Of a stretch of 64,000 nt of DNA, positions 46,150-62,746 are shown piece after piece. This DNA is from Escherichia phage fEgEco12: the sequence record PP777464.1; one strand, given 5' to 3'. The translations under genes and the position numbers were made by a program. The notes beneath the pieces were generated by a model. It worked only from the letters and a program-made list of their open reading frames with translations. It searched no databases and was not told where the DNA came from. Positions within the stretch are counted from its first letter, which is position 1. Each line of letters starts with the position of its first letter.

Positions 46150-46178
46150 TTGACTTATTTTGTCAGTACTGGCATAAT
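46150..46178 (+). promoter_or_regulatory. orphan promoter TTGACT-17-CATAAT (rightward)
   Basis: TTGACT 46150-46155, CATAAT 46173-46178; no ORF downstream. Confidence 0.5.
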
Positions 46179-46293
46179 GTATTCATTGGCAGATAAGCCG
46201 TAGCCCATAGGGTGCGGGAGTGTATCTATAGAAAAAGTAGTTTATTACAGTTACAATTGTGCACCCGGTGGGTTAGCTGTTGTCATGGGGTAT
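46179..46293. ncRNA. candidate small RNA locus between convergent promoters
   Basis: contains TAGCCCATAGGGTGC (46201-46215) and its near reverse complement (46260-46276); no ORF. Confidence 0.3.
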
Positions 46294-46322
46294 ATTATGC
46301 CAGTACTTGATAATGCTGTCAA
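46294..46322 (-). promoter_or_regulatory. orphan promoter on minus strand (TTGACA-17-CATAAT), convergent with 46150
   Basis: reverse complement of 46294-46322 gives TTGACA and CATAAT boxes. Confidence 0.5.
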
Positions 46323-47728: not shown

Positions 47729-47760
47729 CGCGGGGAGATAATAACTCCCCGTTACTTTTT
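47729..47760 (+). terminator. intrinsic terminator hairpin CGGGGAG..CTCCCCG + T-run
   Basis: 7-bp stem then TTACTTTTT. Confidence 0.6.
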
Positions 47761-47839
47761 CAGTACTGAATCATTTAATAGACGGATCTCGGCACCCGGT
47801 GGGTTAGTGACAGTTTCGTCTTGATGTAATAATTATGCC

Positions 47840-47876
47840 AGTACTGGATGCACTTGTCAACAACTATTTTTTCAAA
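47840..47876 (-). promoter_or_regulatory. orphan minus-strand promoter (TTGACA-17-CATAAT) reading into the 3' end of gene 47504
   Basis: reverse complement gives TTGACAAGTGCATCCAGTACTGGCATAAT; leader carries the TAACCCACCGGGTGC motif. Confidence 0.45.
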
Positions 47877-48847: not shown

Positions 48848-48870
48848 TAGCCCACCTGGTGGGCTTTTTT
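48848..48870 (+). terminator. intrinsic terminator AGCCCACC/TGGTGGGCT + T6
   Basis: hairpin + TTTTTTG. Confidence 0.7.
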
Positions 48871-49578: not shown

Positions 49579-49607
49579 TAGCCCACCTTAAACAGTGGGC
49601 TTTTTTG
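49579..49607 (+). terminator. intrinsic terminator GCCCAC..GTGGGC + T6
   Basis: hairpin + TTTTTTG. Confidence 0.7.
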
Positions 49608-52495: not shown

Positions 52496-52501
52496 AAAAA
52501 G

Positions 52502-52533
52502 TGGTTGACTCCGGTCAGCCATTTTGCTATTAT
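52502..52533 (+). terminator. composite terminator-promoter (TGGTTGACTCCGGTCAGCCA; -10 TATTAT)
   Basis: right-arm variant of the left-arm hairpin family. Confidence 0.6.
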
Positions 52534-52622
52534 ATATTCATTGAGAGATAGCTCACTAGCCCACAGGGTGCATAAGTGTATCTATTATATAAGTATTGAG
52601 TACTGAAAACTATTTTTAAAAA
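52534..52622 (+). ncRNA. candidate short transcript carrying TAGCCCACAGGGTGCATAAGTGTATC motif
   Basis: between composite element and next promoter; no ORF. Confidence 0.3.
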
Positions 52623-52687
52623 GTACTTGCAAACTATCTCAATAAGCGTATAATGTTTTACATCGAAAGGGGAAACGGTTTCCCCTG
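52623..52687 (+). promoter_or_regulatory. promoter + leader stem-loop module
   Basis: TTGCAA 52627-52632, TATAAT 52649-52654, hairpin GGGGAAACGGTTTCCCC. Confidence 0.65.
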
Positions 52688-52705
52688 GTAATAAGGAAAC
52701 AAATC

Positions 52706-53047
52706 ATGACTATCTCAATTGCTCAATCTAACTTTGAAAATGAAATCATCGCCCAGGCACTGCGTTTAAATGATGGTCGGGCCGAAATTAATTACGGTTT
52801 CAATTCAGGCGGTTGTGAAAAATATCAGTACTTTGTAACGGCTGATGGCGGTGTCCTGGGTATCAATACAGTTATTGTAAACATACAGAAAATTAATTTC
52901 AATGATCCAGACGATAGCCAGTTTTACATCACTGGCGTAGACGTGAACTATGAGGATGACTCACTAACTGATGATCACACTGGCGAGCGGTTAGAAAGTG
53001 CATACGGTGAAGATGATTATCAGTCCGGTCCAGAAGATTTCGAATAA
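52706..53047 (+). CDS. hypothetical acidic protein (113 aa)
   Basis: ATG after AAGGAAA RBS. Confidence 0.55.
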   Translation: MTISIAQSNFENEIIAQALRLNDGRAEINYGFNSGGCEKYQYFVTADGGVLGINTVIVNIQKINFNDPDDSQFYITGVDVNYEDDSLTDDHTGERLESAYGEDDYQSGPEDFE

Positions 53048-53057
53048 TATAAAAAAA

Positions 53058-53121
53058 TAGTTTGACAATAGATTATAGTACTGTATAATAGTTTACATCA
53101 AGGGGAGAAAAACTTCTCCCC
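53058..53121 (+). promoter_or_regulatory. promoter + leader stem-loop module
   Basis: TTGACA 53062-53067, TATAAT 53084-53089, hairpin GGGGAGAAAAACTTCTCCCC. Confidence 0.65.
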
Positions 53122-53143
53122 ACTAACAGAGAGAAAAAACAAA

Positions 53144-53356
53144 ATGGCTAATATCTGCACTGTACTGAAAAATGCAAAACAAGTTTTATTTTCTGATCAC
53201 GATCATTTAAACAAGGATATTACTGGCGTTCGGAATATCAAAGATGTAAAAAGTGTTATGGGTATCTATTGCAATATGAAACGTGTTGGAACGTTCGGCG
53301 ACAAAGTACTATACCAGGCAGGGGATTACAATTTTACACTGACTATCATTAACTAA
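53144..53356 (+). CDS. hypothetical protein (70 aa)
   Basis: ATG after GAGAGA RBS. Confidence 0.5.
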   Translation: MANICTVLKNAKQVLFSDHDHLNKDITGVRNIKDVKSVMGIYCNMKRVGTFGDKVLYQAGDYNFTLTIIN

Positions 53357-53368
53357 AAATATTATCAC

Positions 53369-53404
53369 AGTACTATTGACATAGTTTGATAGTACTGACA
53401 TAAT
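53369..53404 (+). promoter_or_regulatory. palindrome-embedded promoter (near-duplicate of 50526-50561)
   Basis: TTGACA 53376-53381, CATAAT 53399-53404. Confidence 0.6.
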
Positions 53405-53439
53405 AACTTTTATCAACTACACTACTAAGGAATTAAAAA

Positions 53440-53619
53440 ATGGCTATCATCGCAAAAACTGAAATCGTTGGTCTGGATTCTATCATCATGACGTTTGAAG
53501 ATCAAAAAGGTATGTATGTAGTTTCATATGGTGATTATGTTCGGGAGTATGAAACGGTAGACGAAGCCTTTGAAAGTTATATTCGCCAGGTGAATAAAGC
53601 ATACGACGACTACCGCTAA
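53440..53619 (+). CDS. hypothetical small acidic protein (59 aa)
   Basis: ATG after AAGGAA RBS; below track cutoff. Confidence 0.45.
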   Translation: MAIIAKTEIVGLDSIIMTFEDQKGMYVVSYGDYVREYETVDEAFESYIRQVNKAYDDYR

Positions 53620-53630
53620 AATATATTACC

Positions 53631-53665
53631 AGTACTATTGACATAGATTGATAGTACTGTATAAT
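53631..53665 (+). promoter_or_regulatory. palindrome-embedded promoter variant
   Basis: TTGACA 53638-53643, TATAAT 53660-53665. Confidence 0.6.
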
Positions 53666-53709
53666 AAGTTTTATAAACAGTAGTTAACTTAACCTAAGAG
53701 AGAAATAAA

Positions 53710-53853
53710 ATGATCGCACTGGATTCATTCATCGACGCAGTACTGGCAAAAACTGGCGAGGATCTGACCGCAGAACAATACGCGATGATCGAGCAATGTC
53801 AGCAAAACGGTAAATCGGTGAAAGATACTGTTAAGATTATCCGCAAGATGTAA
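53710..53853 (+). CDS. hypothetical small protein (47 aa)
   Basis: ATG after AGAGAGAAA RBS; paralog of 49834-49986. Confidence 0.45.
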   Translation: MIALDSFIDAVLAKTGEDLTAEQYAMIEQCQQNGKSVKDTVKIIRKM

Positions 53854-53859
53854 TATTAT

Positions 53860-53890
53860 AGCCCACTGGTTAACGCTGGTGGGCTTTAAT
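53860..53890 (+). terminator. hairpin GCCCAC..GTGGGC containing a Chi octamer
   Basis: inverted repeat after stop; weak T-run; GCTGGTGG 53875-53882. Confidence 0.45.
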
Positions 53891-53958
53891 CATTTACCCT
53901 ATACAATGCCAGTACTAAACCGTTTATCTCGTTAGAATGCGTTACAGGACGTTTGACA

Positions 53959-54156
53959 ATGATTAGCATGAAATCAGTACAAAAACAAATAGAAACATTA
54001 TCAAAAATTAAACGTAAACAGTACTCGTTAGAATATACAATCAATGGTAACTATCATCTAATGAAAGAGAATAATTTCATTGTCATTGATGAATCATTGC
54101 AAGTTATTAGTATAGTACTGAAAGCATTAATCAATGACAGAAAAAAATTAAAATAA
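53959..54156 (+). CDS. hypothetical protein (65 aa), uncertain
   Basis: AT-rich ORF without a clear RBS; track start is TTG. Confidence 0.3.
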   Translation: MISMKSVQKQIETLSKIKRKQYSLEYTINGNYHLMKENNFIVIDESLQVISIVLKALINDRKKLK

Positions 54157-54160
54157 TCTA

Positions 54161-54189
54161 TTGACAATATCCTCCAGTACTGGCATAAT
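54161..54189 (+). promoter_or_regulatory. orphan promoter TTGACA-17-CATAAT
   Basis: TTGACA 54161-54166, CATAAT 54184-54189; leader carries AACCCATAGGGTGCAC. Confidence 0.5.
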
Positions 54190-54250
54190 ACTTACATCAA
54201 GACGAGAACGTCACTAACCCATAGGGTGCACAAATGTAACTATATAATAT
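54190..54250 (+). ncRNA. candidate short transcript with ACCCATAGGGTGC motif
   Basis: no ORF downstream. Confidence 0.3.
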
Positions 54251-54251
54251 C

Positions 54252-54324
54252 GATCAATAAATGATCAAAAAAGTACTGGATCAATTTAGCATAAGGCGTA
54301 TAATTCTGATCAATTCTTGATCAA
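54252..54324 (+). promoter_or_regulatory. cluster of five GATCAA repeats around a promoter (TATAAT 54299-54304)
   Basis: GATCAA at 54252, 54263, 54279, 54308, 54319; two pairs spaced 11 bp. Confidence 0.5.
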
Positions 54325-54485
54325 AGGCAATATACGCAGTTGAATTTATATAGACAGTACAAAGGCGTTACTATTCGTGGTAATGCTGGTGGATATGTAG
54401 TATCATATGGTTTGAATAAGATAAACACTAGTAGTATTATTGTAGCATTACAGTACTATAGTATTTTTATAATGAGGTTAAAATA

Positions 54486-54743
54486 ATGGCAGTAGGATAC
54501 GCGAAAGACGGGGCCGAACAAGACGAGATTCATGCAGTGATTCAGGCCGCCGTTAACCACGCTAGAAAGCAAATTAACGCACAAAGAGAATCACTTGTAC
54601 ATTGCCTCGACTGCGGCGATAAAATCCCTGAGAATCGACGCCAGGCCGTTATAGGGTGCATGTATTGTATTACTTGCCAGGAGGATCATGATAGTACTTT
54701 TAAAAGAGATCCGCGTAATTGTTGGCATAGATCTATGAGATAA
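54486..54743 (+). CDS. TraR/DksA-family C4 zinc-finger protein
   Basis: CLDCGDKIPENRR...CMYCITCQ C-x2-C-x17-C-x2-C motif. Confidence 0.7.
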   Translation: MAVGYAKDGAEQDEIHAVIQAAVNHARKQINAQRESLVHCLDCGDKIPENRRQAVIGCMYCITCQEDHDSTFKRDPRNCWHRSMR

Positions 54744-54748
54744 AAAGT

Positions 54749-54776
54749 ATTGACAGTACTGAAAGATAGTGTATAA
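54749..54776 (+). promoter_or_regulatory. promoter TTGACA-16-TATAAT
   Basis: TTGACA 54749-54754, TATAAT 54771-54776. Confidence 0.6.
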
Positions 54777-54806
54777 TGTTTTATATCTTAACTGAGGATA
54801 GTAATC

Positions 54807-55163
54807 ATGGGAATACAACATATCACGCGTACTACTGACAATGGCGAGATCACTGGCTATCAAGTACAGGGCAAAGTAGCACAATTGCAGTACTGGTTTG
54901 TTAAACGTGGAATCATTGCACCGGATCTTGATTATGACCGTGTAGCGTTTATTGATTCTCTTTATGTTGATCCTGATAGTCGGGGCAATGGTGAAGGTAA
55001 CGAATTAATGAATGCCTTTATTGATGCCGCCGATGATTCAGATTGTATCATCTTAGAATGCGATACGGGAGAAGATAACGCCTTTAATCTTAAAGAATGG
55101 TACGAAGGTTTCGGATTCGAGGTATTGATAGATAGTGAATATCCTATCATGATTTTATCATAG
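54807..55163 (+). CDS. GNAT-like N-acetyltransferase (small)
   Basis: VDPDSRGNGEGNELMNAF resembles GNAT motif A; C-terminal Y..GF. Confidence 0.5.
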   Translation: MGIQHITRTTDNGEITGYQVQGKVAQLQYWFVKRGIIAPDLDYDRVAFIDSLYVDPDSRGNGEGNELMNAFIDAADDSDCIILECDTGEDNAFNLKEWYEGFGFEVLIDSEYPIMILS

Positions 55164-55166
55164 TAC

Positions 55167-55223
55167 TTGCATTTAGTTTTCAGTACTGTTATAGTACTTG
55201 CATCAAGGGGAAACATCTTCCCC
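55167..55223 (+). promoter_or_regulatory. promoter + leader stem-loop module
   Basis: TTGCAT, TATAGT, hairpin GGGGAAACATCTTCCCC. Confidence 0.6.
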
Positions 55224-55241
55224 TACTAAGAGGAAATAAAA

Positions 55242-55430
55242 ATGGAAAACTTATCAAGTATTTTAGTACAAGATGATTTCGGTAATCCTGGAAGTGCTAT
55301 CATTGTTCGGGGCAATAAAGCAACGTTTGTTATTGCTGGTGGACCCGTACAGCGTAGCATTAAAAATAATGCTGTTACCATTAATAATGTACGCTATCGC
55401 TTAGATAAAGAATTAATTCATAAACTGTAA
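55242..55430 (+). CDS. hypothetical protein (62 aa)
   Basis: ATG after AGAGGAAA RBS. Confidence 0.5.
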   Translation: MENLSSILVQDDFGNPGSAIIVRGNKATFVIAGGPVQRSIKNNAVTINNVRYRLDKELIHKL

Positions 55431-55457
55431 TATTAATTTAATAGAGGATAACAATAA

Positions 55458-55781
55458 ATGTACATTCATACTACTGTCACAAAGGAAGTCCGTTGCCAGT
55501 TCGAAAGTATTCCGGGCGTATGTTTCATCACTGGTACGTTTTCCCCTGGTGATCGTGATAATCCAGTACTGTTACAGTTACGCCATCCATTATGGGATAA
55601 AGCATTTGATCTGCCGTTGAATGAATTCGCAACCACTGCTGATAAGTACATTAAAAATATTCGCGAGAATGATTGCCTATTCATTAATGCTTTTAGTGAT
55701 GCCGCGTTAAGTGAGATCCATGCTGTATTGGTTGCAATCATGGAATCAATGGAGAAAACTATATTCAAACAAGGTGAATAA
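55458..55781 (+). CDS. hypothetical protein (107 aa)
   Basis: ATG after GAGGA RBS. Confidence 0.55.
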   Translation: MYIHTTVTKEVRCQFESIPGVCFITGTFSPGDRDNPVLLQLRHPLWDKAFDLPLNEFATTADKYIKNIRENDCLFINAFSDAALSEIHAVLVAIMESMEKTIFKQGE

Positions 55782-55786
55782 AAACT

Positions 55787-55846
55787 ATTGACAATGCAAT
55801 CCAGTACTGTATAATAGTTTACATGAAGGGGAGAAATGATTCTCCC
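55787..55846 (+). promoter_or_regulatory. promoter + leader stem-loop module
   Basis: TTGACA 55787-55792, TATAAT 55808-55813, hairpin GGGGAGAAATGATTCTCCCC. Confidence 0.65.
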
Positions 55847-55864
55847 CACTAAGAGGAAAGAAAA

Positions 55865-56077
55865 ATGCAAGGTCAACTAATCGTTCGTAAATGGTCTGAT
55901 ACTAACGAAAAACCGTGGGATGTACAATACATCGCCCCAAATGGTGAATCCAGATATCAACCAGGTGTAACGCATAGTACTGAGCAATTCGCCGCCGCTC
56001 ATCGCGAACGTCTGTTACAATCAATGCAGCAAGGTTCCGGTGAAAAATTCATTCAGGATCATTGGCTGAAAGATTAA
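55865..56077 (+). CDS. hypothetical protein (70 aa)
   Basis: ATG after AGAGGAAAG RBS. Confidence 0.55.
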   Translation: MQGQLIVRKWSDTNEKPWDVQYIAPNGESRYQPGVTHSTEQFAAAHRERLLQSMQQGSGEKFIQDHWLKD

Positions 56078-56085
56078 AAAAGTAC

Positions 56086-56143
56086 TTGCACAGTACTGAA
56101 TAAAGTGTATAATGTTTTATATCGGAAGGGGAATAGTTCCCCT
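56086..56143 (+). promoter_or_regulatory. promoter + leader stem-loop module
   Basis: TTGCAC 56086-56091, TATAAT 56108-56113, hairpin AGGGGAATAGTTCCCCT. Confidence 0.65.
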
Positions 56144-56164
56144 CCTAACAAAGAGGAAAGTATA

Positions 56165-56338
56165 ATGGTCCAGGTAGAATTAACAGTACTGAAAGATCTG
56201 TTTTATCGGATTGGTACTACTGGCGAATATCCGAAGGGTGATAATGCAAAACTTTACGTATCACTCGACTTATGGCAACGCGAACAATTAGCAACGGCCT
56301 GGCGTAAAGGCAAAGCAGATCGAGAGGTGAAAGCATGA
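56165..56338 (+). CDS. hypothetical small protein (57 aa)
   Basis: ATG after AGAGGAAAG RBS. Confidence 0.5.
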   Translation: MVQVELTVLKDLFYRIGTTGEYPKGDNAKLYVSLDLWQREQLATAWRKGKADREVKA

Positions 56339-56484
56339 AAGAATTCTTATTTGAAGTAGTGTTTCAAGGTGTCGGTAATAACCAACTGATTCGATCAAGT
56401 GGTTATAATGTTAACCAGGCATGGAATAACATTAAACAAATGTACCCGAACGCTATCACATATCGCAACCCGAAAGAAGTTTAA
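56335..56484 (+). CDS. hypothetical small protein (49 aa)
   Basis: ATGA overlap; below track cutoff. Confidence 0.4.
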   Translation: MKEFLFEVVFQGVGNNQLIRSSGYNVNQAWNNIKQMYPNAITYRNPKEV

Positions 56485-56498
56485 AAATATTTGAAAAA

Positions 56499-56532
56499 GG
56501 GATTGACTCCGGTCAGTCCCTTTGCTATTATA
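56499..56532 (+). terminator. composite terminator-promoter (GGGATTGACTCCGGTCAGTCCC; -10 TATTAT)
   Basis: hairpin + TTTGC; TTGACT inside stem. Confidence 0.65.
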
Positions 56533-56622
56533 TACGCATAGAAACAAATTAGCCCACAGGGTGCATAAATGTATCTATTGTTTGCTGGTGGCTAGTACTG
56601 AAAACTATTTTTAAAAAAGTAC
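56533..56622 (+). ncRNA. candidate short transcript with TAGCCCACAGGGTGCATAAATGTATC motif and Chi octamer
   Basis: no ORF; GCTGGTGG 56584-56591. Confidence 0.3.
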
Positions 56623-56650
56623 TTGCATTGTACTTAGAATCAAGTATAAT
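56623..56650 (+). promoter_or_regulatory. promoter TTGCAT-16-TATAAT
   Basis: TTGCAT 56623-56628, TATAAT 56645-56650. Confidence 0.6.
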
Positions 56651-56651
56651 G

Positions 56652-56738
56652 TTTTACATCAGGACGGGGAACGAAATAAGTAACCCCGTTAAGTAGTCCA
56701 GGAGTAAGACATACGAAAAACTCCCCTGATAAAATAGT
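56652..56738 (+). ncRNA. candidate small RNA / structured leader (copy 2 of duplicated element)
   Basis: near-identical to 46398-46486; no ORF. Confidence 0.35.
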
Positions 56739-56766
56739 TTGACAATAGAAAGTAAACGAGTATAAT
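56739..56766 (+). promoter_or_regulatory. promoter TTGACA-16-TATAAT
   Basis: TTGACA 56739-56744, TATAAT 56761-56766. Confidence 0.6.
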
Positions 56767-56799
56767 ACTTACATCAACCACTGATAAGGAAACATTAAA

Positions 56800-57075
56800 A
56801 TGCGGACTTTACTTACAGCTAACGAAATCGAGCAAGTACTGACTACTAATCTGGAACAATGGAAACGTGAAGCAGATATCCAGGCGGTTCAATGCCTTAA
56901 CGATAAGTTAACGCCAGATGACTTAAGCACGATTGTTGATCCACAATTTTATGAAGATATTCACGACACGTCTTTAAGCGTCGAGGATGTACTTGATAAG
57001 CACTACATTGATACTGATTTACATGTTTACGGTCGTAAAAACTTTATCACTATTCACGACATTTACAATACTTAA
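56800..57075 (+). CDS. hypothetical protein (91 aa)
   Basis: ATG after AAGGAAA RBS. Confidence 0.55.
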   Translation: MRTLLTANEIEQVLTTNLEQWKREADIQAVQCLNDKLTPDDLSTIVDPQFYEDIHDTSLSVEDVLDKHYIDTDLHVYGRKNFITIHDIYNT

Positions 57076-57078
57076 GTA

Positions 57079-57140
57079 TTGACAAAGTATCTTAGTACTG
57101 TATAATAGTTTACATCAAGTGAGGGGAAACGGTTCCCCTC
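57079..57140 (+). promoter_or_regulatory. promoter + leader stem-loop module
   Basis: TTGACA 57079-57084, TATAAT 57101-57106, hairpin GAGGGGAAACGGTTCCCCTC. Confidence 0.65.
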
Positions 57141-57163
57141 CTAACAAAGAGAGAGAAATAAAA

Positions 57164-57346
57164 ATGGCTAAGTGCACTATCTGTAATAAAGAAATAGTAT
57201 TAGTTCCAAGTGCCCGTGAACGTGCCGCTCGGTTCGGTGGCAAAGCGTCAGACTATACAAAAATGTTTACTGCCCATACAGCTTGCCAGGTAGCAAAACG
57301 TTCACAAGAAAGCGTAGAATTAATGCGTAAACTTTCCAAAAAATAA
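57164..57346 (+). CDS. small protein with CxxC (60 aa)
   Basis: ATG after AGAGAGAGAAA RBS. Confidence 0.5.
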   Translation: MAKCTICNKEIVLVPSARERAARFGGKASDYTKMFTAHTACQVAKRSQESVELMRKLSKK

Positions 57347-57349
57347 GTA

Positions 57350-57411
57350 TTGACAAAGTATCTTAGTACTGTATAATAGTTTACATCAAGCGAGGGGAAT
57401 AGTTCCCCTCC
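57350..57411 (+). promoter_or_regulatory. promoter + leader stem-loop module (duplicate of 57079-57140)
   Basis: TTGACA 57350-57355, TATAAT 57372-57377, hairpin GAGGGGAATAGTTCCCCTC. Confidence 0.65.
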
Positions 57412-57433
57412 TAACAAAGAGAGAGAAATAAAA

Positions 57434-57757
57434 ATGGCTATGATCCTTGCCCAGAAAGTAGAATTGAAAATTGTAACCTCCTTTGACATTAACGTTAATC
57501 GGTGGACTGATTCACACGGCAATACTTACCACTCTTGCTACGTGTCTGCGTTAATTGGCGACCGCTGGGAAGACCTGGGACACGAAACCTTTACATACGG
57601 TTACGGTACACAAGGCGAATACACGGGCTTGGAGATCATTAAAGAAACCGTTATAGGTTTCAACCCGAAAGAAAAAGTTATTCATCGCATCGAGGAAGAG
57701 ATCAACAAAGAAATAACAGTTCGCTACCACGATGTAAAACGTAAGAAAGACATGTAA
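57434..57757 (+). CDS. hypothetical protein (107 aa), paralog of 50603-50926
   Basis: shared NRWTDSHGNTYHSC block. Confidence 0.55.
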   Translation: MAMILAQKVELKIVTSFDINVNRWTDSHGNTYHSCYVSALIGDRWEDLGHETFTYGYGTQGEYTGLEIIKETVIGFNPKEKVIHRIEEEINKEITVRYHDVKRKKDM

Positions 57758-57788
57758 TAGAATCCATTTAAAGTACTATTTGACATTG

Positions 57789-57817
57789 CCCAGATAGTAC
57801 TTTATAATAGACTCTAA
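57789..57817 (+). promoter_or_regulatory. promoter TTGACA-17-TATAAT
   Basis: TTGACA 57789-57794, TATAAT 57812-57817. Confidence 0.6.
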
Positions 57818-57852
57818 CTTGTAGTACTAACTCAACTAATAGGATGTATACC

Positions 57853-58248
57853 ATGATTACTAAATTCTACGCTACCCGTGAAGCTGCCCGTATTGTTGCA
57901 CGCGAGGAAGGAGCAGCATTTAAAGACATGGGCAAAGATGCAACGAAAGGACAACGCTGGGCCGTACAGTTCAAAGAAATCTCTGATATTGTGAATTCAC
58001 CTGAGCCAGTACTGACAGCAGCAGAACTAAAACGAGCGGATATGCTGGCGGCAATACTTGACGCACAAGATGAGTTTATCGCTGATTCTGATATCAAAGT
58101 ACAGGTAAACCACACCGCATGGACTCACGCGGATCACCTGGCAAACCTTAAGCGTCCAAGTGAACTGATTCGCAACCAGAAAGAGATCCGACATGATCGT
58201 AAGGGTAATCGTGTAACAGTATACAGTAAACGCCGCCAGGTTATCTAA
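57853..58248 (+). CDS. hypothetical protein (131 aa), paralog of 45535-45801
   Basis: shared KFYATREAARI...RKGNRVTVY blocks. Confidence 0.55.
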   Translation: MITKFYATREAARIVAREEGAAFKDMGKDATKGQRWAVQFKEISDIVNSPEPVLTAAELKRADMLAAILDAQDEFIADSDIKVQVNHTAWTHADHLANLKRPSELIRNQKEIRHDRKGNRVTVYSKRRQVI

Positions 58249-58270
58249 TAACTTGCAGTACTAACAACAC

Positions 58271-58295
58271 GGCGGGATCAGTTCCCGCCTTTTTT
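58271..58295 (+). terminator. intrinsic terminator GGCGGGATCAGTTCCCGCC + T6
   Basis: hairpin + TTTTTT. Confidence 0.7.
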
Positions 58296-58309
58296 ATAGG
58301 ACAAACAAA

Positions 58310-58564
58310 ATGATTAAGGTTCAACTATATAAAGATAACATCTTACGGGTACACTATAAAGCACCTCAGAGAATCATCACAAAGGCCGTACAGCTTGCTA
58401 ATGAGTTTATTAATGGTAACCTATTACCTAGGAAGTTAAGCAACGGGAAACTGCGTGTAATCGACGTGGACACTAACAACAGGATAGTAATCGAGAACAC
58501 AGGAAAGATAAACCTTTATGAGCATCAACAATACAATAAGAAAATAAAACTAATATCACGTTGA
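58310..58564 (+). CDS. hypothetical protein (84 aa)
   Basis: ATG ORF. Confidence 0.5.
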   Translation: MIKVQLYKDNILRVHYKAPQRIITKAVQLANEFINGNLLPRKLSNGKLRVIDVDTNNRIVIENTGKINLYEHQQYNKKIKLISR

Positions 58565-58589
58565 CAGTACTCAATTGTTTTAGTACTAT
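58561..58589 (+). promoter_or_regulatory. promoter TTGACA-17-TACTAT
   Basis: TTGACA 58561-58566; duplicated at 58837. Confidence 0.55.
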
Positions 58590-58617
58590 GTACACATACC
58601 AACACGGGAGAAACAAA

Positions 58618-58836
58618 ATGAAATTATCTAAAATCGAAAAGAAAACTATTGATGAAGCAGTTAAGCACGGTTATACCTTTCGTAATGATTCACATTTTAC
58701 CAATTTTCAACAAGGGTATCGTACTATTAAAAAACTAATTGACAAAGGTTTATTAGTTGAAGTCAATAACGGTAACGGTATCGAGTATCAACCAACACAG
58801 GACGCATTTTATTTTAAGAAATATAATATTATCTAA
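58618..58836 (+). CDS. hypothetical protein (72 aa)
   Basis: ATG after GGGAGAAA RBS; track ORF begins at TTG within the promoter. Confidence 0.5.
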   Translation: MKLSKIEKKTIDEAVKHGYTFRNDSHFTNFQQGYRTIKKLIDKGLLVEVNNGNGIEYQPTQDAFYFKKYNII

Positions 58837-58865
58837 TTGACAGTACTCAAATGTTTTAGTACTAT
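58837..58865 (+). promoter_or_regulatory. promoter TTGACA-17-TACTAT (duplicate of 58561)
   Basis: TTGACA 58837-58842. Confidence 0.55.
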
Positions 58866-58893
58866 ATGTACATACCAACACGGGGGAAACAAA

Positions 58894-59136
58894 ATGATTA
58901 CTTTAGAAAAACGTATCAAAGAAACTACATCGCTGGTGGAACTGTTAACAGTACTCAAATGTAAAACAACACCATTCAGCACGCCGGACTTTATTAATAT
59001 GGTTGATGTTAATGGTCGCTATCGTATCACGGTCGAACAAGGAGCGGCGAAAGTATTCAGTACTAAAAACACGAAGGAAGTGATCCACGCCGTTAATGTT
59101 AAAAAAGTAGTTGCCATTGATAGTAAAGTACTGTAA
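58894..59136 (+). CDS. hypothetical protein (80 aa)
   Basis: ATG after GGGGGAAA RBS. Confidence 0.5.
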   Translation: MITLEKRIKETTSLVELLTVLKCKTTPFSTPDFINMVDVNGRYRITVEQGAAKVFSTKNTKEVIHAVNVKKVVAIDSKVL

Positions 59137-59167
59137 TATAGTTTCATTAACTCAAGGAGAACATGCA

Positions 59168-59752
59168 ATGCGTAATTATACTAAATTCATCCGTACACTG
59201 TCAGAAATGGAAACCAACAAAGAGATCCTTTCAGCTTGTCGGTTAGCTGGCCTGGAGATCATCGGTGCTGGTTCTTCCCGTATAGTTTTCGCTTTAAATG
59301 ATCGGTTAGTGATTAAGGTCGCGAATTGTGATGCGGGTGTAGAACAAAATGAAACTGAATGTAAGGTATGGAATTTTTTAGACTATGACCGCCCTCAATT
59401 GAAACAGTACTTTGCAAAGGTGCATATGCATTTATGCGATCCTGATAATATGTTTATCGTTATGGATCGGTTGAGTACTGCAAGCAAAGGCAGTGTGAAG
59501 CACGTAAACGCGTGCAATGAATTAAAGTACAATATTAAACGTAATGCAATCGAACGCCAGCACCGCTTTGCTGATGCACTACAACACGTTGATGATACAT
59601 TATCAACACTAACGATAAGAGATATCAGAAAACAGAATATCGGCCAGGATCGTAATGGACTTATTAAAGTACTTGATTACGGTTTAACCAGCAATATCTG
59701 GAATCAGTACTATAAAAAGCGTGATGTGGCAGCAAGTAAGGTAACACGATAA
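59168..59752 (+). CDS. protein-kinase-like protein (ePK-fold motifs)
   Basis: GAGSSRIV glycine loop, VIKV lysine, IRDIRKQN catalytic-loop-like, DYG (DFG-like). Confidence 0.55.
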   Translation: MRNYTKFIRTLSEMETNKEILSACRLAGLEIIGAGSSRIVFALNDRLVIKVANCDAGVEQNETECKVWNFLDYDRPQLKQYFAKVHMHLCDPDNMFIVMDRLSTASKGSVKHVNACNELKYNIKRNAIERQHRFADALQHVDDTLSTLTIRDIRKQNIGQDRNGLIKVLDYGLTSNIWNQYYKKRDVAASKVTR

Positions 59753-59767
59753 AAAAAGATTAAAAAA

Positions 59768-59800
59768 GGGATTGACTCCGGTCAGTCCCTTTGCTATTAT
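59768..59800 (+). terminator. composite terminator-promoter (GGGATTGACTCCGGTCAGTCCC; -10 TATTAT)
   Basis: same element as 56499 and 62520. Confidence 0.65.
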
Positions 59801-59893
59801 ATATCCATTGAGAGATAACTCACTGACCCATAGGGTGCGGAAGTGTATCTATTATATAAGTATTCAGTACTGAAAACTATTTTTAAAAAAGTA
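59801..59893 (+). ncRNA. candidate short transcript with ACCCATAGGGTGCGGAAGTGTATC motif
   Basis: no ORF before next promoter. Confidence 0.3.
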
Positions 59894-59954
59894 CTTGCAT
59901 TGTACTTAGAATCAAGTATAATGTTTTATATCGAGAGGGGGAATGGTTCTCCCT
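59894..59954 (+). promoter_or_regulatory. promoter + leader stem-loop module
   Basis: TTGCAT 59894-59899, TATAAT 59917-59922, hairpin GGGGGAATGGTTCTCCC. Confidence 0.65.
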
Positions 59955-59973
59955 GGCAATAAGGAATAAAATC

Positions 59974-60195
59974 ATGACTACAATGACTTGCATTTACGCT
60001 TCTAATCTTCTGAATGATGCGGCCTTTAATGTTGATTCAGAATATCAATGTTATCGGGATGAAAATAAAAAAGTTTTTGTAGTTGATAATAATGGTTTCC
60101 ATATTGAATTACAATCCGGCTTCACTGGTGTTGATGGTAAATCAGTATGGGGCGTACAGGATGATAAAGGCACATATCATTTTAAACGTAATTAA
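59974..60195 (+). CDS. hypothetical protein (73 aa)
   Basis: ATG after AAGGAATAAA RBS. Confidence 0.55.
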   Translation: MTTMTCIYASNLLNDAAFNVDSEYQCYRDENKKVFVVDNNGFHIELQSGFTGVDGKSVWGVQDDKGTYHFKRN

Positions 60196-60198
60196 GTA

Positions 60199-60257
60199 TT
60201 GACAAAGTATATCAGTACTGTATAATAGTTTACATCAAGGGGAGAATAGTTCTCCCC
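60199..60257 (+). promoter_or_regulatory. promoter + leader stem-loop module
   Basis: TTGACA 60199-60204, TATAAT 60221-60226, hairpin GGGGAGAATAGTTCTCCCC. Confidence 0.65.
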
Positions 60258-60278
60258 GATACTAAAAGGAATAAAATC

Positions 60279-60683
60279 ATGACTACTACTAATCAAGCTC
60301 GGTCCATCGCCAACGATAAAAATCATGCTGCAATGGTCGCTGGTTACATTGAAGCTATGCAATTCAGTACTGTACACAATGAGAACGGCGATTACCTGGA
60401 AGATTATGAGTTATCTGATGAAGCACGTCAAGCGGCGGTGATTGCATGTTCTCGCTTCATTGAGAAACACGGTAATGATCTGGAAGTAGTTCGCGGTATG
60501 TTTATTGATTACGGTTATGAGCAAGCTGGTCATGATCTGTTCCTTACCCGCGAAGGTCACGGAACTGGTTTTTGGGATCGTGGTTTAGGTCACTATGGCG
60601 ATGTATTCACGAAGTACTGCGAAGAAATCAACGTTTGCGATCCCTATGTAGGCGATGATAATCTAATCTATATGGGCGAATAA
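60279..60683 (+). CDS. hypothetical protein (134 aa)
   Basis: ATG after AAAGGAA RBS. Confidence 0.55.
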   Translation: MTTTNQARSIANDKNHAAMVAGYIEAMQFSTVHNENGDYLEDYELSDEARQAAVIACSRFIEKHGNDLEVVRGMFIDYGYEQAGHDLFLTREGHGTGFWDRGLGHYGDVFTKYCEEINVCDPYVGDDNLIYMGE

Positions 60684-60689
60684 AAGTAT

Positions 60690-60748
60690 TTGACAAAGTA
60701 TATCAGTACTGTATAATAGTTTACATCAAGGGGAGAACTATTCTCCCC
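60690..60748 (+). promoter_or_regulatory. promoter + leader stem-loop module
   Basis: TTGACA 60690-60695, TATAAT 60712-60717, hairpin GGGGAGAACTATTCTCCCC. Confidence 0.65.
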
Positions 60749-60772
60749 ACACCAATAAAAGGAAACAAAATT

Positions 60773-61045
60773 ATGTCCAGCTACTCCGCTACTATGATCA
60801 TTAAAGATATGAACGGTAATCCTACTTCTGCTGGTGGATCATTTGGAAATATTAACTTAGATGGGCGGTTATCCATGCAATCAGCCATCGATACAGCGAA
60901 AGAAGTTTTTAAGAATGAATGTACTGTTAGTAAGCTGGATTATATGGGATTCGCTATCGAGAAAACTACTCGTTTTGTGAACTACAAAAATCCACTGATG
61001 ATTGATACTAACCTGAAAGCTAACGAAGTGGGGTACTTATTATGA
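60773..61045 (+). CDS. hypothetical protein (90 aa)
   Basis: ATG after AAAGGAAA RBS. Confidence 0.55.
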   Translation: MSSYSATMIIKDMNGNPTSAGGSFGNINLDGRLSMQSAIDTAKEVFKNECTVSKLDYMGFAIEKTTRFVNYKNPLMIDTNLKANEVGYLL

Positions 61046-61233
61046 CAGTAGAAGAAGTTAAAAAAGTACTGGCAGTACTACGATATCATAATCATTGCAA
61101 GGTGAAGAATGATCCTGATTATCTTGATTCATCCCTGGAGGAAGACACCTTGAACGCTATAAGCCATATGCAGACATTAGCAAAGCGTATGACTGAAAAG
61201 AACATGCCGGACTATATCGGAAATAAAATTTAA
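61042..61233 (+). CDS. hypothetical protein (63 aa)
   Basis: ATGA overlap. Confidence 0.5.
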   Translation: MTVEEVKKVLAVLRYHNHCKVKNDPDYLDSSLEEDTLNAISHMQTLAKRMTEKNMPDYIGNKI

Positions 61234-61239
61234 AAAGTA

Positions 61240-61302
61240 CTTGCATTGTAGTTAGATTAACGTATAATGTTTTATATCGAGAGGGGGAAATGGTTTCCCC
61301 TC
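61240..61302 (+). promoter_or_regulatory. promoter + leader stem-loop module
   Basis: TTGCAT 61240-61245, TATAAT 61263-61268, hairpin GAGGGGGAAATGGTTTCCCCTC. Confidence 0.65.
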
Positions 61303-61320
61303 AAGTCCAGGAGATACACC

Positions 61321-61584
61321 ATGAACACTATCGAAATCACTATCAATGCACACGTATACGACAACGTAGTACTGCAAACTACTATGACCGCCAATGATAC
61401 CAGTACTTTGCGGAATACTGTTATTAGTGCCGTATGTGCCGCTATCGGTGATGTCGCCCTGGAAAATGCAAAACACGTAAACGATGGTTTCACTATGTGC
61501 AAACGTGATAACGCAAAACATATCATCGTGGAAGGTTACGGCGGTGTAGAATTTAATGTTTATATGAAAAAAGTACTTGCATAA
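61321..61584 (+). CDS. hypothetical protein (87 aa)
   Basis: ATG after CAGGAGA RBS. Confidence 0.55.
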   Translation: MNTIEITINAHVYDNVVLQTTMTANDTSTLRNTVISAVCAAIGDVALENAKHVNDGFTMCKRDNAKHIIVEGYGGVEFNVYMKKVLA

Positions 61585-61632
61585 TAACTAAAACAAAGTA
61601 TAATGTTTTGCATAGGGGGAGATATCCTCCCC
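61577..61632 (+). promoter_or_regulatory. promoter + leader stem-loop module
   Basis: TTGCAT 61577-61582, TATAAT 61599-61604, hairpin GGGGGAGATATCCTCCCCC. Confidence 0.65.
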
Positions 61633-61651
61633 CACTAAAAGGAGTAATAAA

Positions 61652-61876
61652 ATGGCTAACTTTGATGAACTGATGCGGGAAGTAGCTAACCTGGCAGAAG
61701 AGAAGAAATCATTCGATTCTATCTATAACACCGCTCACCGTGATTCAGTACTGGCATGTAACCAGGATCAAAAAGATGAACTAATCGCCACCTATCATGA
61801 AGCATGGAAGTACTACCGACAATGGGAGAAAGAAGAAAGTGAGTCTACCATTGACGGCCTCAATAATCTAATCTAA
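61652..61876 (+). CDS. hypothetical protein (74 aa)
   Basis: ATG after AAGGAG RBS. Confidence 0.55.
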   Translation: MANFDELMREVANLAEEKKSFDSIYNTAHRDSVLACNQDQKDELIATYHEAWKYYRQWEKEESESTIDGLNNLI

Positions 61877-61888
61877 AAGTTTTATTTC

Positions 61889-61924
61889 AGTACTATTGAC
61901 ATAGCTTGATAGTACTGATGTAAT
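61889..61924 (+). promoter_or_regulatory. palindrome-embedded promoter (AGTACTATTGACATAGCTTGATAGTACT)
   Basis: TTGACA 61896-61901; weak -10. Confidence 0.5.
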
Positions 61925-61952
61925 AACTTTACTAACTACAAGGGGAAACATA

Positions 61953-62210
61953 ATGGATCAGTTCACACAATATCGGGTAAATCCACAAGCTATGGCCTAC
62001 GTAGAAGACCATAAAACGTTACCAGTACTGCAACCAGTTAAAGGCCATATCTATCGTGCAATGTCGTGGTGTACGGCCCAGGATGGCTATAAAACCGTAG
62101 CCGTGGGTATGTATTGCGGTGATGGTGAATGGTTTGATCCAAATAATCCGGTAGCCATTGACAGTACTGAAAAAATGAAATGGGCCGACTACATCGAAGA
62201 TATTTCATAA
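61953..62210 (+). CDS. hypothetical protein (85 aa)
   Basis: ATG after AAGGGGAAA RBS. Confidence 0.55.
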   Translation: MDQFTQYRVNPQAMAYVEDHKTLPVLQPVKGHIYRAMSWCTAQDGYKTVAVGMYCGDGEWFDPNNPVAIDSTEKMKWADYIEDIS

Positions 62211-62217
62211 AAACTAT

Positions 62218-62279
62218 TTGACAGTACTAACCAATAATGTATAATGTTTTACATAGAGCGGGGGAATAGTTCTCCCGCC
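62218..62279 (+). promoter_or_regulatory. promoter + leader stem-loop module
   Basis: TTGACA 62218-62223, TATAAT 62240-62245, hairpin GCGGGGGAATAGTTCTCCCGC. Confidence 0.65.
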
Positions 62280-62300
62280 AATAGTTTGGAGTAAAACATT

Positions 62301-62501
62301 ATGTCTATCGCTATCGCCCTGGTTGAAGTACTGAAAGAAGCTAAAGCCAACCAGATCGACGTAAAGATCCAGGAACTACAAAACGGCTTAATCGGCTGTA
62401 CTTGTACCGCTGGTGGAGCGGCAGACTATCGAGAACACGAATCACTCGAATCACTGGTTCGGTATCTTACCATGATCGTTGATGATTGGAGAATCATCTA
62501 A
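62301..62501 (+). CDS. hypothetical protein (66 aa)
   Basis: ATG after TGGAG RBS. Confidence 0.55.
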   Translation: MSIAIALVEVLKEAKANQIDVKIQELQNGLIGCTCTAGGAADYREHESLESLVRYLTMIVDDWRII

Positions 62502-62519
62502 CAAAAAAGAATAAAAAAA

Positions 62520-62552
62520 GGGATTGACTCCGGTCAGTCCCTTTGCTATTAT
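62520..62552 (+). terminator. composite terminator-promoter (GGGATTGACTCCGGTCAGTCCC; -10 TATTAT)
   Basis: third identical right-arm copy. Confidence 0.65.
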
Positions 62553-62660
62553 ATACGCATAGACAAAAACTAGCCCACAGGGTGCATAGGTGTATCCAAA
62601 ATATATAGTTAATAACGGTGAGTAACTATCTGCTGGTGGAACTAAAACTATTAATAAAAA
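62553..62660 (+). ncRNA. candidate short transcript with CTAGCCCACAGGGTGCATAGGTGTATC motif and Chi octamer
   Basis: no ORF; GCTGGTGG 62632-62639. Confidence 0.3.
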
Positions 62661-62664: not shown

Positions 62665-62692
62665 TTGACAAAGTATATCAGTACTGCAATAA
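62665..62692 (+). promoter_or_regulatory. promoter TTGACA with weak -10 (CAATAAT)
   Basis: TTGACA 62665-62670. Confidence 0.45.
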
Positions 62693-62746
62693 TGTATCTC
62701 GTAGGGCGGCAATGGTGCGACGGCCCACAAAGTTAGGAGATTCACC

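Follow-up and report, generated by a model that had tools for sequence, protein, structure and literature searches.

The recurrent motif TAGCCCAYAGGGTGC of an Asteriusvirus jumbo coliphage is the core of a folded RNA of roughly 60 bases that opens the transcripts of one strong early promoter class, and the element matches no described RNA family. In the window, the whole stretch of 64,000 nucleotides that was analysed, nine matches with at most two mismatches were found against 0.10 expected, a count reached by none of 100 shuffles. They start at 46201, 52557, 54215, 56550, 59824 and 62571 on the plus strand, occupy 44106-44120, 46261-46275 and 47792-47806 on the minus strand, and include every copy listed in the preliminary description. 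With its filters switched off, a covariance model recovers the same nine copies (41-67 bits, E 1e-7 to 1e-13) and adds two degenerate, marginal ones at 44236-44300(+) and 44298-44361(-), with 17 bits each and E about 0.3; all window copies are confined to 44-63 kb, and this model found nothing credible in 1-44 kb. In the DNA examined there are 71 copies, carried by Asteriusvirus, Alcyoneusvirus (RaK2), Mimasvirus (GAP32, CBB), Eneladusvirus (Yersinia and Serratia phages) and two metagenomic jumbo contigs. The covariance model gave no copy in 1-24 kb of PA5oct, which includes both of its ncRNAs, and about 90 loci with a chance 14-mer match contained none; Rfam, tRNA, host genomes and the literature likewise yielded no match to the element.

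Each of the nine window copies is preceded by a sigma70-like promoter, among them all three minus-strand copies, of which only two had been so described. Every one of the 71 copies has a promoter that agrees with the consensus at 9 or more of 12 positions, its -10 ending 20-28 nt upstream; the -10 is extended in 47 of them, and the orientation of the element relative to the promoter is identical throughout. The earlier figure of about 25-30 nt after the -10 box is roughly right, the end of the hexamer lying 24-27 nt from the first stem base in six window copies and 20 nt in three. In the window no ORF of at least 40 aa occurs on the transcript strand between motif and next promoter, in line with the earlier description. 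The predicted transcription start is the A of a conserved YCAT, 7 nt past the -10 box, and the first 55-60 nt would fold into a hairpin at the 5' end (hp1), a linker and then either a second hairpin (hp2) or an alternative one (hp3). The window features, with bit scores from the covariance model, are as follows:

52498..52583 (+): copy 1, 66.6 bits; terminator hairpin 52498-52525 holding the -35 (52505-52510), -10 TATTAT 52528-52533, predicted start A 52540; hp1 TGAG-agatag-CTCA, hp2 52559-52569 (GCCCACAGGGT), hp3 52566-52583 (GGGTGC-ataagt-GTATCT)
56496..56576 (+): copy 2, without hp1, 60.5 bits; terminator/-35 hairpin 56496-56523, -10 56526-56531, predicted start 56538; hp2 56552-56562, hp3 56559-56576
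59765..59850 (+): copy 3, 67.1 bits; terminator/-35 hairpin 59765-59792, -10 59795-59800, predicted start 59807; hp1 TGAG-agataa-CTCA, hp2 59826-59836 (ACCCATAGGGT), hp3 59833-59850
62517..62597 (+): copy 4, without hp1, 62.1 bits; terminator/-35 hairpin 62517-62544, -10 62547-62552, predicted start 62559; hp2 62573-62583, hp3 62580-62597 with 3' box GTATCC
54161..54241 (+): copy 5, 54.6 bits; promoter TTGACA-N17-(TG)CATAAT 54161-54189, predicted start 54196; hp1 GACG-agaa-CGTC, hp2 54217-54227, 3' box GTAACT
46150..46227 (+): copy 6, plus member of a face-to-face pair, 51.2 bits; promoter 46150-46178, predicted start 46185; hp1 TGGC-agataa-GCCG, hp2 46203-46213, hp3 46210-46227
46249..46322 (-): copy 7, minus member of the pair with copy 6 (spacer 45 nt; predicted fold of the pair -39.5 kcal/mol), without hp1, 41.1 bits; promoter 46322-46294, predicted start about 46287; hp2 46273-46263, hp3 46266-46249
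47731..47860 (-): copy 8, free-standing antisense unit, 53.2 bits; promoter 47860-47832, predicted start 47825; hp1 GACG-aaac-TGTC, hp2 47804-47794, hp3 47797-47780; followed by CAGTACTG and the bidirectional terminator hairpin 47751-47731; predicted RNA about 100 nt
44094..44173 (-): copy 9, 46.6 bits; promoter 44173-44146, predicted start 44139; hp1 AGTC-gagaaa-GACT, hp2 44118-44108, hp3 44111-44094 with 3' box ACGCCC; transcription heads left across a second promoter and enters non-coding repeats
44236..44389: degenerate face-to-face pair, 17 bits each (marginal); 44236-44300(+) has lost the CCC arm, and the hp3 left over is scored, together with T7, as intrinsic terminator 44270-44289; 44298-44361(-), behind promoter 44389-44362, has the variant CCCCAGGGGGTGG
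52627..52654 (+): second promoter after copy 1, TTGCAA-N16-TATAAT behind an A/T tract
56623-56650, 59895-59922 and 62665-62693 (+), 44048-44020 (-): equivalent second promoters
48849..48865 (+): intrinsic terminator whose stem is the 5' half of the motif plus its own reverse complement (TAGCCCAC-ctg-GTGGGCT + T6)
49580-49601 and 53861-53886: terminators of the same build

Some 2-4 nt separate the first hairpin from the predicted 5' end; its position is fixed, its stem varies freely in sequence, and its loop is rich in purines and ends in AA. At least 12 different stem sequences occur, and the alignment-free stem score is 4.54, compared with 2.45 +/- 0.27 in shuffles. Double changes are found in all four pairs, with a score that 0 of 500 shuffles reached and that collapses in a slide control, in an alignment that had been fitted to the model, as it was for the hp2 covariation and hp3 register tests. 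hp1 is missing from three of the nine window copies and from nine of the 71 overall. Three nucleotides further on, hp2 has the form RCCC-loop-GGGU with CCC/GGG invariant, a closing pair of either A-U (36 copies) or G-U (31 copies), and a loop of 3-6 nt of free sequence between fixed flanks; the evidence for its pairing consists of the R:U alternation, the variation in loop length and a single double change (CCT/AGG), with hardly any covariation. In hp3, GGGUGC pairs with a 3' box GYRUCY, seen at the window motif as (G)TGTATC(T), and in the model-fitted alignment 89.6% of the cells pair in register as against at most 65.6% when slid. Variation in hp3 is one-sided only, the 3' box changing by wobble-compatible transitions alone, so that in the alignment each G faces nothing but C or U, and the U nothing but A or G. 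Since hp2 and hp3 share a strand, are mutually exclusive and are about equally stable (mean energies -3.8 and -2.6 kcal/mol, hp3 being more stable in 32 of the 71 copies), the module would be a bistable RNA.

Judged by its substitution patterns, namely the covariation of hp1, the loop-length variation of hp2 and the wobble-only change opposite GGGUGC, the element behaves as RNA. These patterns bear on the idea of a duplex-DNA operator, in which a phage or host protein would bind CCC-N3-GGGTGC at +14 to +35 and block or modulate the promoters, e.g. during early shut-off. The fixed distance between motif and promoter, the nearly invariant core and the inverted pairs, which look like dimer sites, would all suit such an operator, but the CCC-GGG spacing ranges from 3 to 6 nt within fixed flanks, the orientation relative to the promoter is strict, and both the covarying hp1 and the wobble-compatible 3' box are signatures of RNA, leaving this explanation quite improbable. 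Of the shared binding site that had been suggested, a version on RNA is plausible and one on duplex DNA is disfavoured. Nor is the motif an activator site for the promoter downstream of it, since anything from 37 to 79 nt may lie between the two.

CCC..GGGUGC is preserved from genus to genus while promoters, hp1 stems, loops and flanks have all diverged, indicating selection on the motif and not recent copying. Recent copying would have kept the motif if it were a passenger in a mobile promoter cassette, a terminator-promoter-leader block spread by recombination as for PeSL elements. Copies within a genome are closely alike, four window copies lie in PeSL-type terminator-plus-promoter composites (PMC2839356, PMC4122927), and the terminators made from motif halves, which are also found in G17 and RaK2, suggest recombination or deletion between copies; set against the divergence of everything else between genera, a passenger is nonetheless very improbable. 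Gene conversion among repeated cassettes could explain some of the cross-copy identity.

Three genomic contexts were observed. In 27 copies the element precedes a second promoter and a gene; 27 copies belong to face-to-face pairs, where a downstream ORF candidate exists mostly for the sense member only; and 6 are clear cases of a free-standing antisense unit closed by a terminator. About a third of all copies lack a downstream gene. The free-standing units, which run antisense to their neighbours and have a predicted length of about 100 nt, include two promoter-motif-terminator units with U-tails in RaK2 (L002 19982-20092 and 27048-27160), the window unit 47860->47731, which is of the same kind and recurs in G17 (L001 2019-2082), and one unit that is syntenic in GAP32, CBB and Yersinia (three phages, two genera). 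The family of non-coding small RNAs that had been proposed therefore holds as far as conservation, promoter attachment, action at the RNA level and these discrete units are concerned, but not for five of the nine window copies (52557, 54215, 56550, 59824, 62571), which have no terminator before the next gene, so that their transcripts must continue as mRNA 5' leaders, nor for a sixth, 44120(-), which runs into non-coding repeats. The tandem copies may also be read as plain 5' UTRs, as nothing stops read-through.

The free-standing units and the copies without a gene are what trans-acting small RNAs would be expected to leave, with the conserved 15 nt pairing with host or phage mRNAs, possibly together with Hfq. 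Such RNAs are unlikely, in that the conserved nucleotides are locked in hairpin stems and offer no free seed, and a terminator directly follows the copy in only 6 of 71. A search for complementary targets gave none either: the complementary sites in the window are solely the family's own reverse copies, and 5,426 E. coli genomes hold no match to the 71-nt element, a search in which a 10-15 nt seed match lies below detection. Cis-acting control of elongation resembling lambda nut or HK022 put, in which the nascent hairpins, alone or with a phage protein, would modify their own polymerase for read-through of terminators in the early block, is no likely account either. The hairpins are promoter-proximal with fixed orientation, their hp1 loops, purine-rich and ending in AA, loosely resemble those of boxB, and a partner as strongly conserved as RNA polymerase would account for the lack of change among phages that infect different hosts. 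Moreover, between the strong terminator 58271-58289 and the gene that comes 20 nt after it there is no promoter, so that read-through is needed there. Against this, there is no conserved boxA-like single-stranded sequence, each terminator already has its own promoter behind it, and roughly one copy in three has no gene ahead of it, or fires antisense into a terminator or another copy, where antitermination would make no sense. Least of all would we expect the transcripts to serve as primers or activators of DNA replication, in the manner of the R-loop origins oriF and oriG of T4 or of RNA II and its antisense RNA I in ColE1. The succession of strong promoter, G cluster and A/T-rich tract, the overlapping convergent pairs reminiscent of RNA I/RNA II, and the one copy that fires into an iteron-like repeat region (43.7-43.93 kb) would be in keeping with it, but ten or more copies in about 20 kb are many for origins.

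Our preferred reading, offered tentatively and at somewhat less than even confidence, places the motif at the invariant core of a structured module of ~60 nt tied to one class of strong early promoters of RaK2-like jumbo phages, used by the host RNA polymerase with sigma70, where it serves as a bistable recognition tag. hp1 may protect the triphosphate end against 5'-end-dependent decay, and the invariant hp2/hp3 segment would be the tag recognised by a strongly conserved protein, of host or phage origin, which could act jointly on all of these early transcripts. Where copies stand free or face to face, the product may be the short RNA itself, with its predicted ends and abundance, and it would work as a decoy or regulator present in high copy number, while in tandem copies the module would be the 5' leader of an early mRNA. 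A scan of the ten larger neighbouring ORFs for a binding protein gave one GNAT domain, otherwise sub-threshold matches, and no candidate.

Several known systems share individual traits with the element. The ompA-type 5'-terminal stabiliser hairpins of E. coli mRNAs resemble hp1 in its nearness to the predicted 5' end, free stem sequence and fixed position, but account for hp1 only, which nine of 71 copies lack, and not for the invariant hp2/hp3. Lambda nut (boxA/boxB) and HK022 put are likewise small, RNA-acting hairpins near the promoters of early phage transcripts, present in more than one copy per genome; here, however, there is no boxA, the conserved part is a stem and not a loop, and ten or more copies occur per genome, a third of them without an operon to antiterminate. 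As in the expression platforms of attenuators and riboswitches, two alternative hairpins of similar stability share one strand (GGGU), but a U-tract follows hp3 in few copies only (window 44270, GAP32 17320), and neither an aptamer-like domain nor an Rfam match is present. The related jumbo phage PA5oct has highly expressed terminal-repeat ncRNAs amounting to 2-5% of phage reads (PMC7318152), which are similar as non-coding transcripts of an early, terminal-repeat region but have no sequence relationship to the element. In T4-type phages, PeSL cassettes (promoter-early plus stem-loop) are repeated between small ORFs of the variable early region (PMC2839356, PMC4122927), and the window copies at 52.5, 56.5, 59.8 and 62.5 kb share with them a terminator stem-loop fused to a near-consensus sigma70 early promoter. 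Described PeSLs lead from the promoter directly to a Shine-Dalgarno sequence and start codon, whereas here a conserved structured leader of 60 nt and usually a second promoter come after the first, and many copies stand without the terminator part and some without any gene.

Searching the window with TAGCCCAYAGGGTGC at up to two mismatches gave nine matches, six plus-strand and three minus-strand, against 0.10 expected, and all copies of the motif in the preliminary description were found again. A covariance model built on 43 copies and run over the whole window with its filters off scored these nine at 41-67 bits and added two marginal, degenerate copies at 44236-44300 (+) and 44298-44361 (-), while it returned no credible copy in 1-44 kb, the window copies being confined to 44.1-62.6 kb. 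A sigma70-type promoter precedes each of the nine. At four of these promoters the -35 sits in a terminator hairpin (TTGACTCCGGTCA...TGCTATTAT; hairpins at 52498, 56496, 59765 and 62517); the remaining five have no terminator hairpin around the -35, and in four of them CAGTACTG or AAGTACTG adjoins the -10 hexamer (TTGACA-N7-CAGTACTGGCATAAT). The promoter at 44173-44146 carries CAGTACTG-TATAAT with a weaker -35 upstream. With the early promoters of phage T5 as the model for start-site prediction, the first base transcribed should be the A in a conserved YCAT, 7 nt past the -10, and this A is found in eight of the nine window copies. The absence of an ORF before the next promoter, as originally described, holds in the window, where no ORF of at least 40 aa lies on the transcript strand between motif and next promoter. 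A coding role was rejected, as there is no space for a ribosome site and start codon ahead of the motif, and the mini-ORF (A/G)TG-TAT-CTA-stop present in some copies was dropped because its NTG is replaced by ATC or ATA in about 45%.

The model found 71 copies in total, in the window and eight loci of matched phages, and in all 71 the end of the -10 hexamer lies 20-28 nt ahead of the first stem base. The first hairpin (hp1) has 3-5 bp and begins 2-4 nt from the predicted start, and exactly 3 nt separate its end from the second (hp2). Its stem sequence is free between copies (TGAG/CTCA, TGGC/GCCG, GACG/CGTC, AGTC/GACT, AGCA/TGCT, GCCA/TGGC, GGAG/CTCC, ACCAC/GTGGT, TCGAA/TTCGA), with an alignment-free score of 4.54 versus 2.45 +/- 0.27 for shuffles; in the model alignment all four pairs show both-side changes, none of 500 shuffles reaches the observed covariation, and the pairing is lost once the partner is slid. 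The hp1 loop is purine-rich with AA at its end. Nine of the 71 copies (three of the nine in the window) have an A-rich unpaired stretch instead of hp1, and here the -10 ends 20-21 nt ahead of hp2. In hp2 (RCCC-loop-GGGU) CCC and GGG are invariant apart from one CCT/AGG double-change copy, the closing pair is A-U in 36 copies, G-U in 31 and G-C in none, and the loop varies in length (3-6 nt) and sequence (ACA, AUA, ACC, AUU, UAUA, UCAA, UAGA, AAAA). Fixed halves around a gap of varying length are what a hairpin would show and a duplex-DNA site would not, and they speak against the motif being an operator read in double-stranded DNA, which we consider very unlikely.

A third hairpin (hp3), missed by the preliminary description, can form between GGGUGC and a 3' box (GTATCT and variants) over a 6-nt loop, with 89.6% of cells paired in register versus 35-66% when slid by 1-3 columns. 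The box column opposite U holds A (47) or G (24) only, two columns opposite G hold C or U only (17/54 and 64/7), in the other two opposite G, 65 and 67 of the 71 copies have C or U, and the loop columns beside the box use all four bases. Read from the alignment, this variation, limited to wobble-compatible transitions, is the signature of a predicted RNA helix facing a G/U-rich strand. Covariance and structure modelling, proposed initially as a check, thus found hp1 covarying, the hp2 loop varying in length and the hp3 box varying wobble-compatibly. Since hp2 and hp3 both need GGGU they are mutually exclusive, and with computed stabilities of -3.8 +/- 1.0 kcal/mol for hp2 and -2.6 +/- 3.1 kcal/mol for hp3, the stabler of the two in 32 of the 71, the module looks bistable as modelled. 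Two further proposals were rejected: an extra helix closing the module, or a pseudoknot between the hp1 loop and the 3' box, fits some copies by eye, yet RNAalifold predicts neither and both are inconsistent across loop types; and a Shine-Dalgarno or RegB-type GGAG in the hp3 loop occurs in about half of all copies and in one of nine in the window.

The copies occur in three contexts, tandem with a second promoter, face to face, and free-standing, of which the following are examples:

52557 (+), tandem copy
56550 (+), tandem copy
59824 (+), tandem copy
62571 (+), tandem copy
44120 (-), tandem copy leading to non-coding repeats, not to a gene
54215, tandem-like copy with a weak second promoter
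46201 (+) with 46275 (-), face-to-face pair
47860->47731 (-), free-standing unit whose end hairpin has a weaker U-tract and also terminates the upstream gene
RaK2 locus L002, 19982-20092 and 27048-27160, free-standing units with strong terminators
GAP32 12849-12912, CBB 10210-10273 and Yersinia 6478-6541, one syntenic free-standing unit

In the 27 tandem copies an A/T-rich tract and a second promoter (TTGCAA-N16-TATAAT) follow 37-79 nt after GGGTGC, and beyond these come the second promoter's own leader hairpin and then a gene; there is no terminator between, so that RNA started at the first promoter has to continue into the gene. The varying distance led to the rejection of the motif as an activator site for the second promoter. 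Another 27 copies form face-to-face pairs with quantised spacers of 45, 63 or 67 nt, most of which have a downstream ORF candidate for the sense member only; a transcript spanning both copies of the 46.2 kb pair is computed to form a long hairpin (-39.5 kcal/mol, z = -3.3). Free-standing promoter-motif-terminator units number six clear cases, antisense to flanking genes and with predicted RNAs of about 100 nt. The context scan left 11 copies unclassified, among them 47860->47731. A direct terminator follows six of 71 copies, plus a few weak ones, and a second promoter and gene follow 27. About one-third of copies have no gene to serve, which argues that the RNA, or making it, is a product in its own right. 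The initial view of a small-RNA family stands insofar as what recurs is a non-coding RNA element, with some copies forming discrete small RNA genes, and needs correcting for the five of nine window copies that are leaders into genes; the possibility raised with it, that the motif is merely the 5' UTR of the next gene, may hold for the tandem copies. In GAP32 (locus L003, 8821-9228) the DNA behind a promoter and motif has no annotated gene for about 350 nt, up to an annotated terminator (9199-9228), which hints at a longer non-coding transcript, about 390 nt in length, with the module at its 5' end.

That the copies act as classical base-pairing small RNAs appears unlikely. They share with Hfq-type trans-acting small RNAs a promoter of their own (sigma70-like and 20-28 nt upstream in 71 of 71), but such RNAs close with a U-tailed intrinsic terminator, found directly in only six of 71 here. 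The conserved bases sit in the hp2/hp3 stems, so the conserved part is structured and not a free seed. The window holds no complement of the motif beyond the family's own reverse copies, and E. coli genomes gave no match to the 71-nt element, short seeds lying below detection.

With Escherichia phage vB_EcoM_JNE01 the window shares 98% identity, and with PBECO4, G17 and UB 91-93%; all of these are Asteriusvirus jumbo phages, about 350 kb in size. Related records annotate the region solely with small hypothetical ORFs and ARNold terminators, and in some it falls within the direct terminal repeat. A 71-nt query picked up the element in 68 phage records, and the matching DNA was almost always intergenic and unannotated. 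These records are from Asteriusvirus, Klebsiella RaK2 and K64-1, Cronobacter GAP32, Pectobacterium CBB, Yersinia fHe-Yen9-03/04, Serratia BF, and Erwinia and Salmonella jumbo phages. In the RaK2 locus (L002) copies cluster at 13.4-29.9 kb of 40 kb. A 14-mer scan of IMG/VR gave mostly chance matches: only jumbo-phage contigs passed the covariance model, which found no copy in about 90 loci with a chance 14-mer. The model likewise found none in 1-24 kb of Pseudomonas phage PA5oct, and homology to the ncRNAs of that phage was rejected. Between genera, 12-15 nt of hp2/hp3 are unchanged while the rest of the cassette has diverged; that the element is a passenger in a mobile cassette is highly improbable.

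Several further features surround the copies. The palindrome CAGTACTG occurs 73 times in the whole window versus about one expected, in both gene arms (e.g. 86, 13552, 40466-40713, 43347-43686, 54175, 62679), often in promoter spacers where it abuts the -10 (CAGTACTGGCATAAT), or shortly before A/T-rich tracts. In GAP32, CBB and Yersinia, free-standing copies of the motif have hairpins made of palindrome pairs downstream of them. The palindrome may be the site of a regulator. Where the leftward arm meets the rightward arm, 1.3 kb without ORFs (43350-44700, especially 43700-43930) contain degenerate repeats in tandem (GGCTAGACGG, GGATGGCTGGATGGCT), together with several promoters, which lie on both strands, and the motif in three to four copies, and may be a replication origin or control region. 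As a role for the element's transcripts, replication priming is extremely unlikely. At 43374-43420 (+), the promoter TTGACT-N16-TATAAT has, at its predicted start, ATAGGGTGA, a sequence similar to the motif 3' half; the transcript would cross the repeat region and could end at the hp3-type terminator (44270-44289). Intrinsic terminators whose stem consists of the motif 5' half and its reverse complement (TAGCCCAC...GTGGGCT) lie at 48849-48865, 49580-49601 and 53861-53886, with others of the same build in G17 (L001; 2858, 3594, 7877) and RaK2 (L002; 12382-12405, GCCCATAGG...CCTGTGGGC); from their sequence they look as if a face-to-face pair had been collapsed by deletion. The second-promoter class has a 5' leader hairpin of its own (52655-52705, 44690-44745 and equivalents) with stems that differ by copy (GGGGAAAC/GTTTCCCC; GCGGGAAC/CTTCCCGC), which suggests that 5' hairpins are general among early transcripts here. 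Within 58271-58310 lies a strong intrinsic terminator (GGCGGGATCAGTTCCCGCC + T6); an 84-aa ORF begins 20 nt on with no promoter between, so that the next four ORFs need read-through or weak internal promoters. A 118-aa ORF (54807-55163) encodes a GNAT acetyltransferase (E 4e-9), a 213-aa ORF (59111-59752) has a weak, sub-threshold protein-kinase match (E 0.005), and related records annotate a DksA/TraR-type zinc-finger protein in this block.

Taken together, a conserved RNA-type structure is fixed at the 5' end of the predicted transcripts of one promoter class, at least ten times per genome and in three contexts. In E. coli, protection of the 5' end by 5'-terminal hairpins is well established, and hp1 would protect the transcript in this way. 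The 12-15 nt kept in hp2/hp3 point to a slowly evolving partner, which would recognise this invariant segment. We tentatively favour, short of thinking it probable, a protein-recognised bistable RNA tag that serves both as early-mRNA leader and as free small RNA; the outcome could be decoy, stability, processing or shut-off. A more specific version appears rather doubtful: the shared tag, on immediate-early transcripts and free small RNAs from at least ten promoters, would act in one of two ways, by titrating a conserved host factor, as an RNA decoy aimed at a nuclease, defence sensor or global RNA-binding protein, or by letting one phage factor turn the whole early class on or off together. 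Either option, if true, would amount to a phage RNA regulon of a new kind. Early gene control is unstudied in RaK2-like jumbo phages, several of which are therapy candidates against E. coli and Klebsiella. A 60-nt structure present at least ten times per genome on the strongest host-polymerase promoters, and invariant in at least four genera infecting different Enterobacterales, points to a conserved interaction required by the phage during the first few minutes of infection. As a bait for finding the partner the element is short and easily made, and the model can annotate these promoters and leaders in new genomes, in regions now blank.

Compared with known classes, Rfam 15 gave no match over the whole window at gathering thresholds and only three weak, unrelated matches at E<=10 in 44-48 kb, ARAGORN found no tRNA or tmRNA gene in the window, and the searchable full-text literature yielded neither an account of the motif nor a transcriptome from this group of phages. 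Likenesses of 7-8 nt to RNase P RNA, the 16S 530 loop and the MS2 operator are presumably chance. A CRISPR-repeat mimic (anti-CRISPR RNA), which should closely match the repeat in the host's array, was rejected: compared by hand, the element matches 16 of 28 positions of a type I-F repeat, stem and loop sizes differ, and phages whose hosts differ in CRISPR type carry an identical motif. An intrinsic attenuator has alternative hairpins, one of which is a terminator with a U-tract; the module has alternative hairpins as modelled, and a U-tract follows hp3 in few copies only. Column 67 is A in 57 of 71. The lambda nut site joins a conserved single-stranded boxA to a hairpin, and the HK022 put RNA has two promoter-proximal stem-loops acting on polymerase without a protein. 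Elongation control of this type would suit tandem copies, which lie upstream of terminators and genes, as in the 56.5 kb block with its strong internal terminator at 58271 and no promoter ahead of the next gene, but the position fails in the roughly one-third of copies that are antisense or free-standing, and we regard it as improbable. No boxA-like block is conserved upstream of hp2, where linker and flanks vary (CUA, UUA, GUA, UUG, CAA), and Pfam searches of ten neighbouring ORFs gave the GNAT acetyltransferase and otherwise sub-threshold matches, with no informative domain for an N-like partner. Two hairpins are predicted in the module. With the PeSL cassettes of T4-type phages, the composites at 52498, 56496, 59765 and 62517 share a terminator stem-loop and a sigma70-like early promoter amid small variable ORFs, the surrounding region consisting of small hypothetical ORFs. 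In PeSLs the next gene's ribosome site and start codon come immediately behind the promoter (PMC2839356; PMC4122927), whereas here a 60-nt leader, absent from that description, and a second promoter intervene. The element belongs to known kinds, structured leader or small RNA, as a family undescribed until now in a poorly studied phage group, and its unusual traits are its many copies, its fusion to promoters, the face-to-face pairs and the two competing hairpins.
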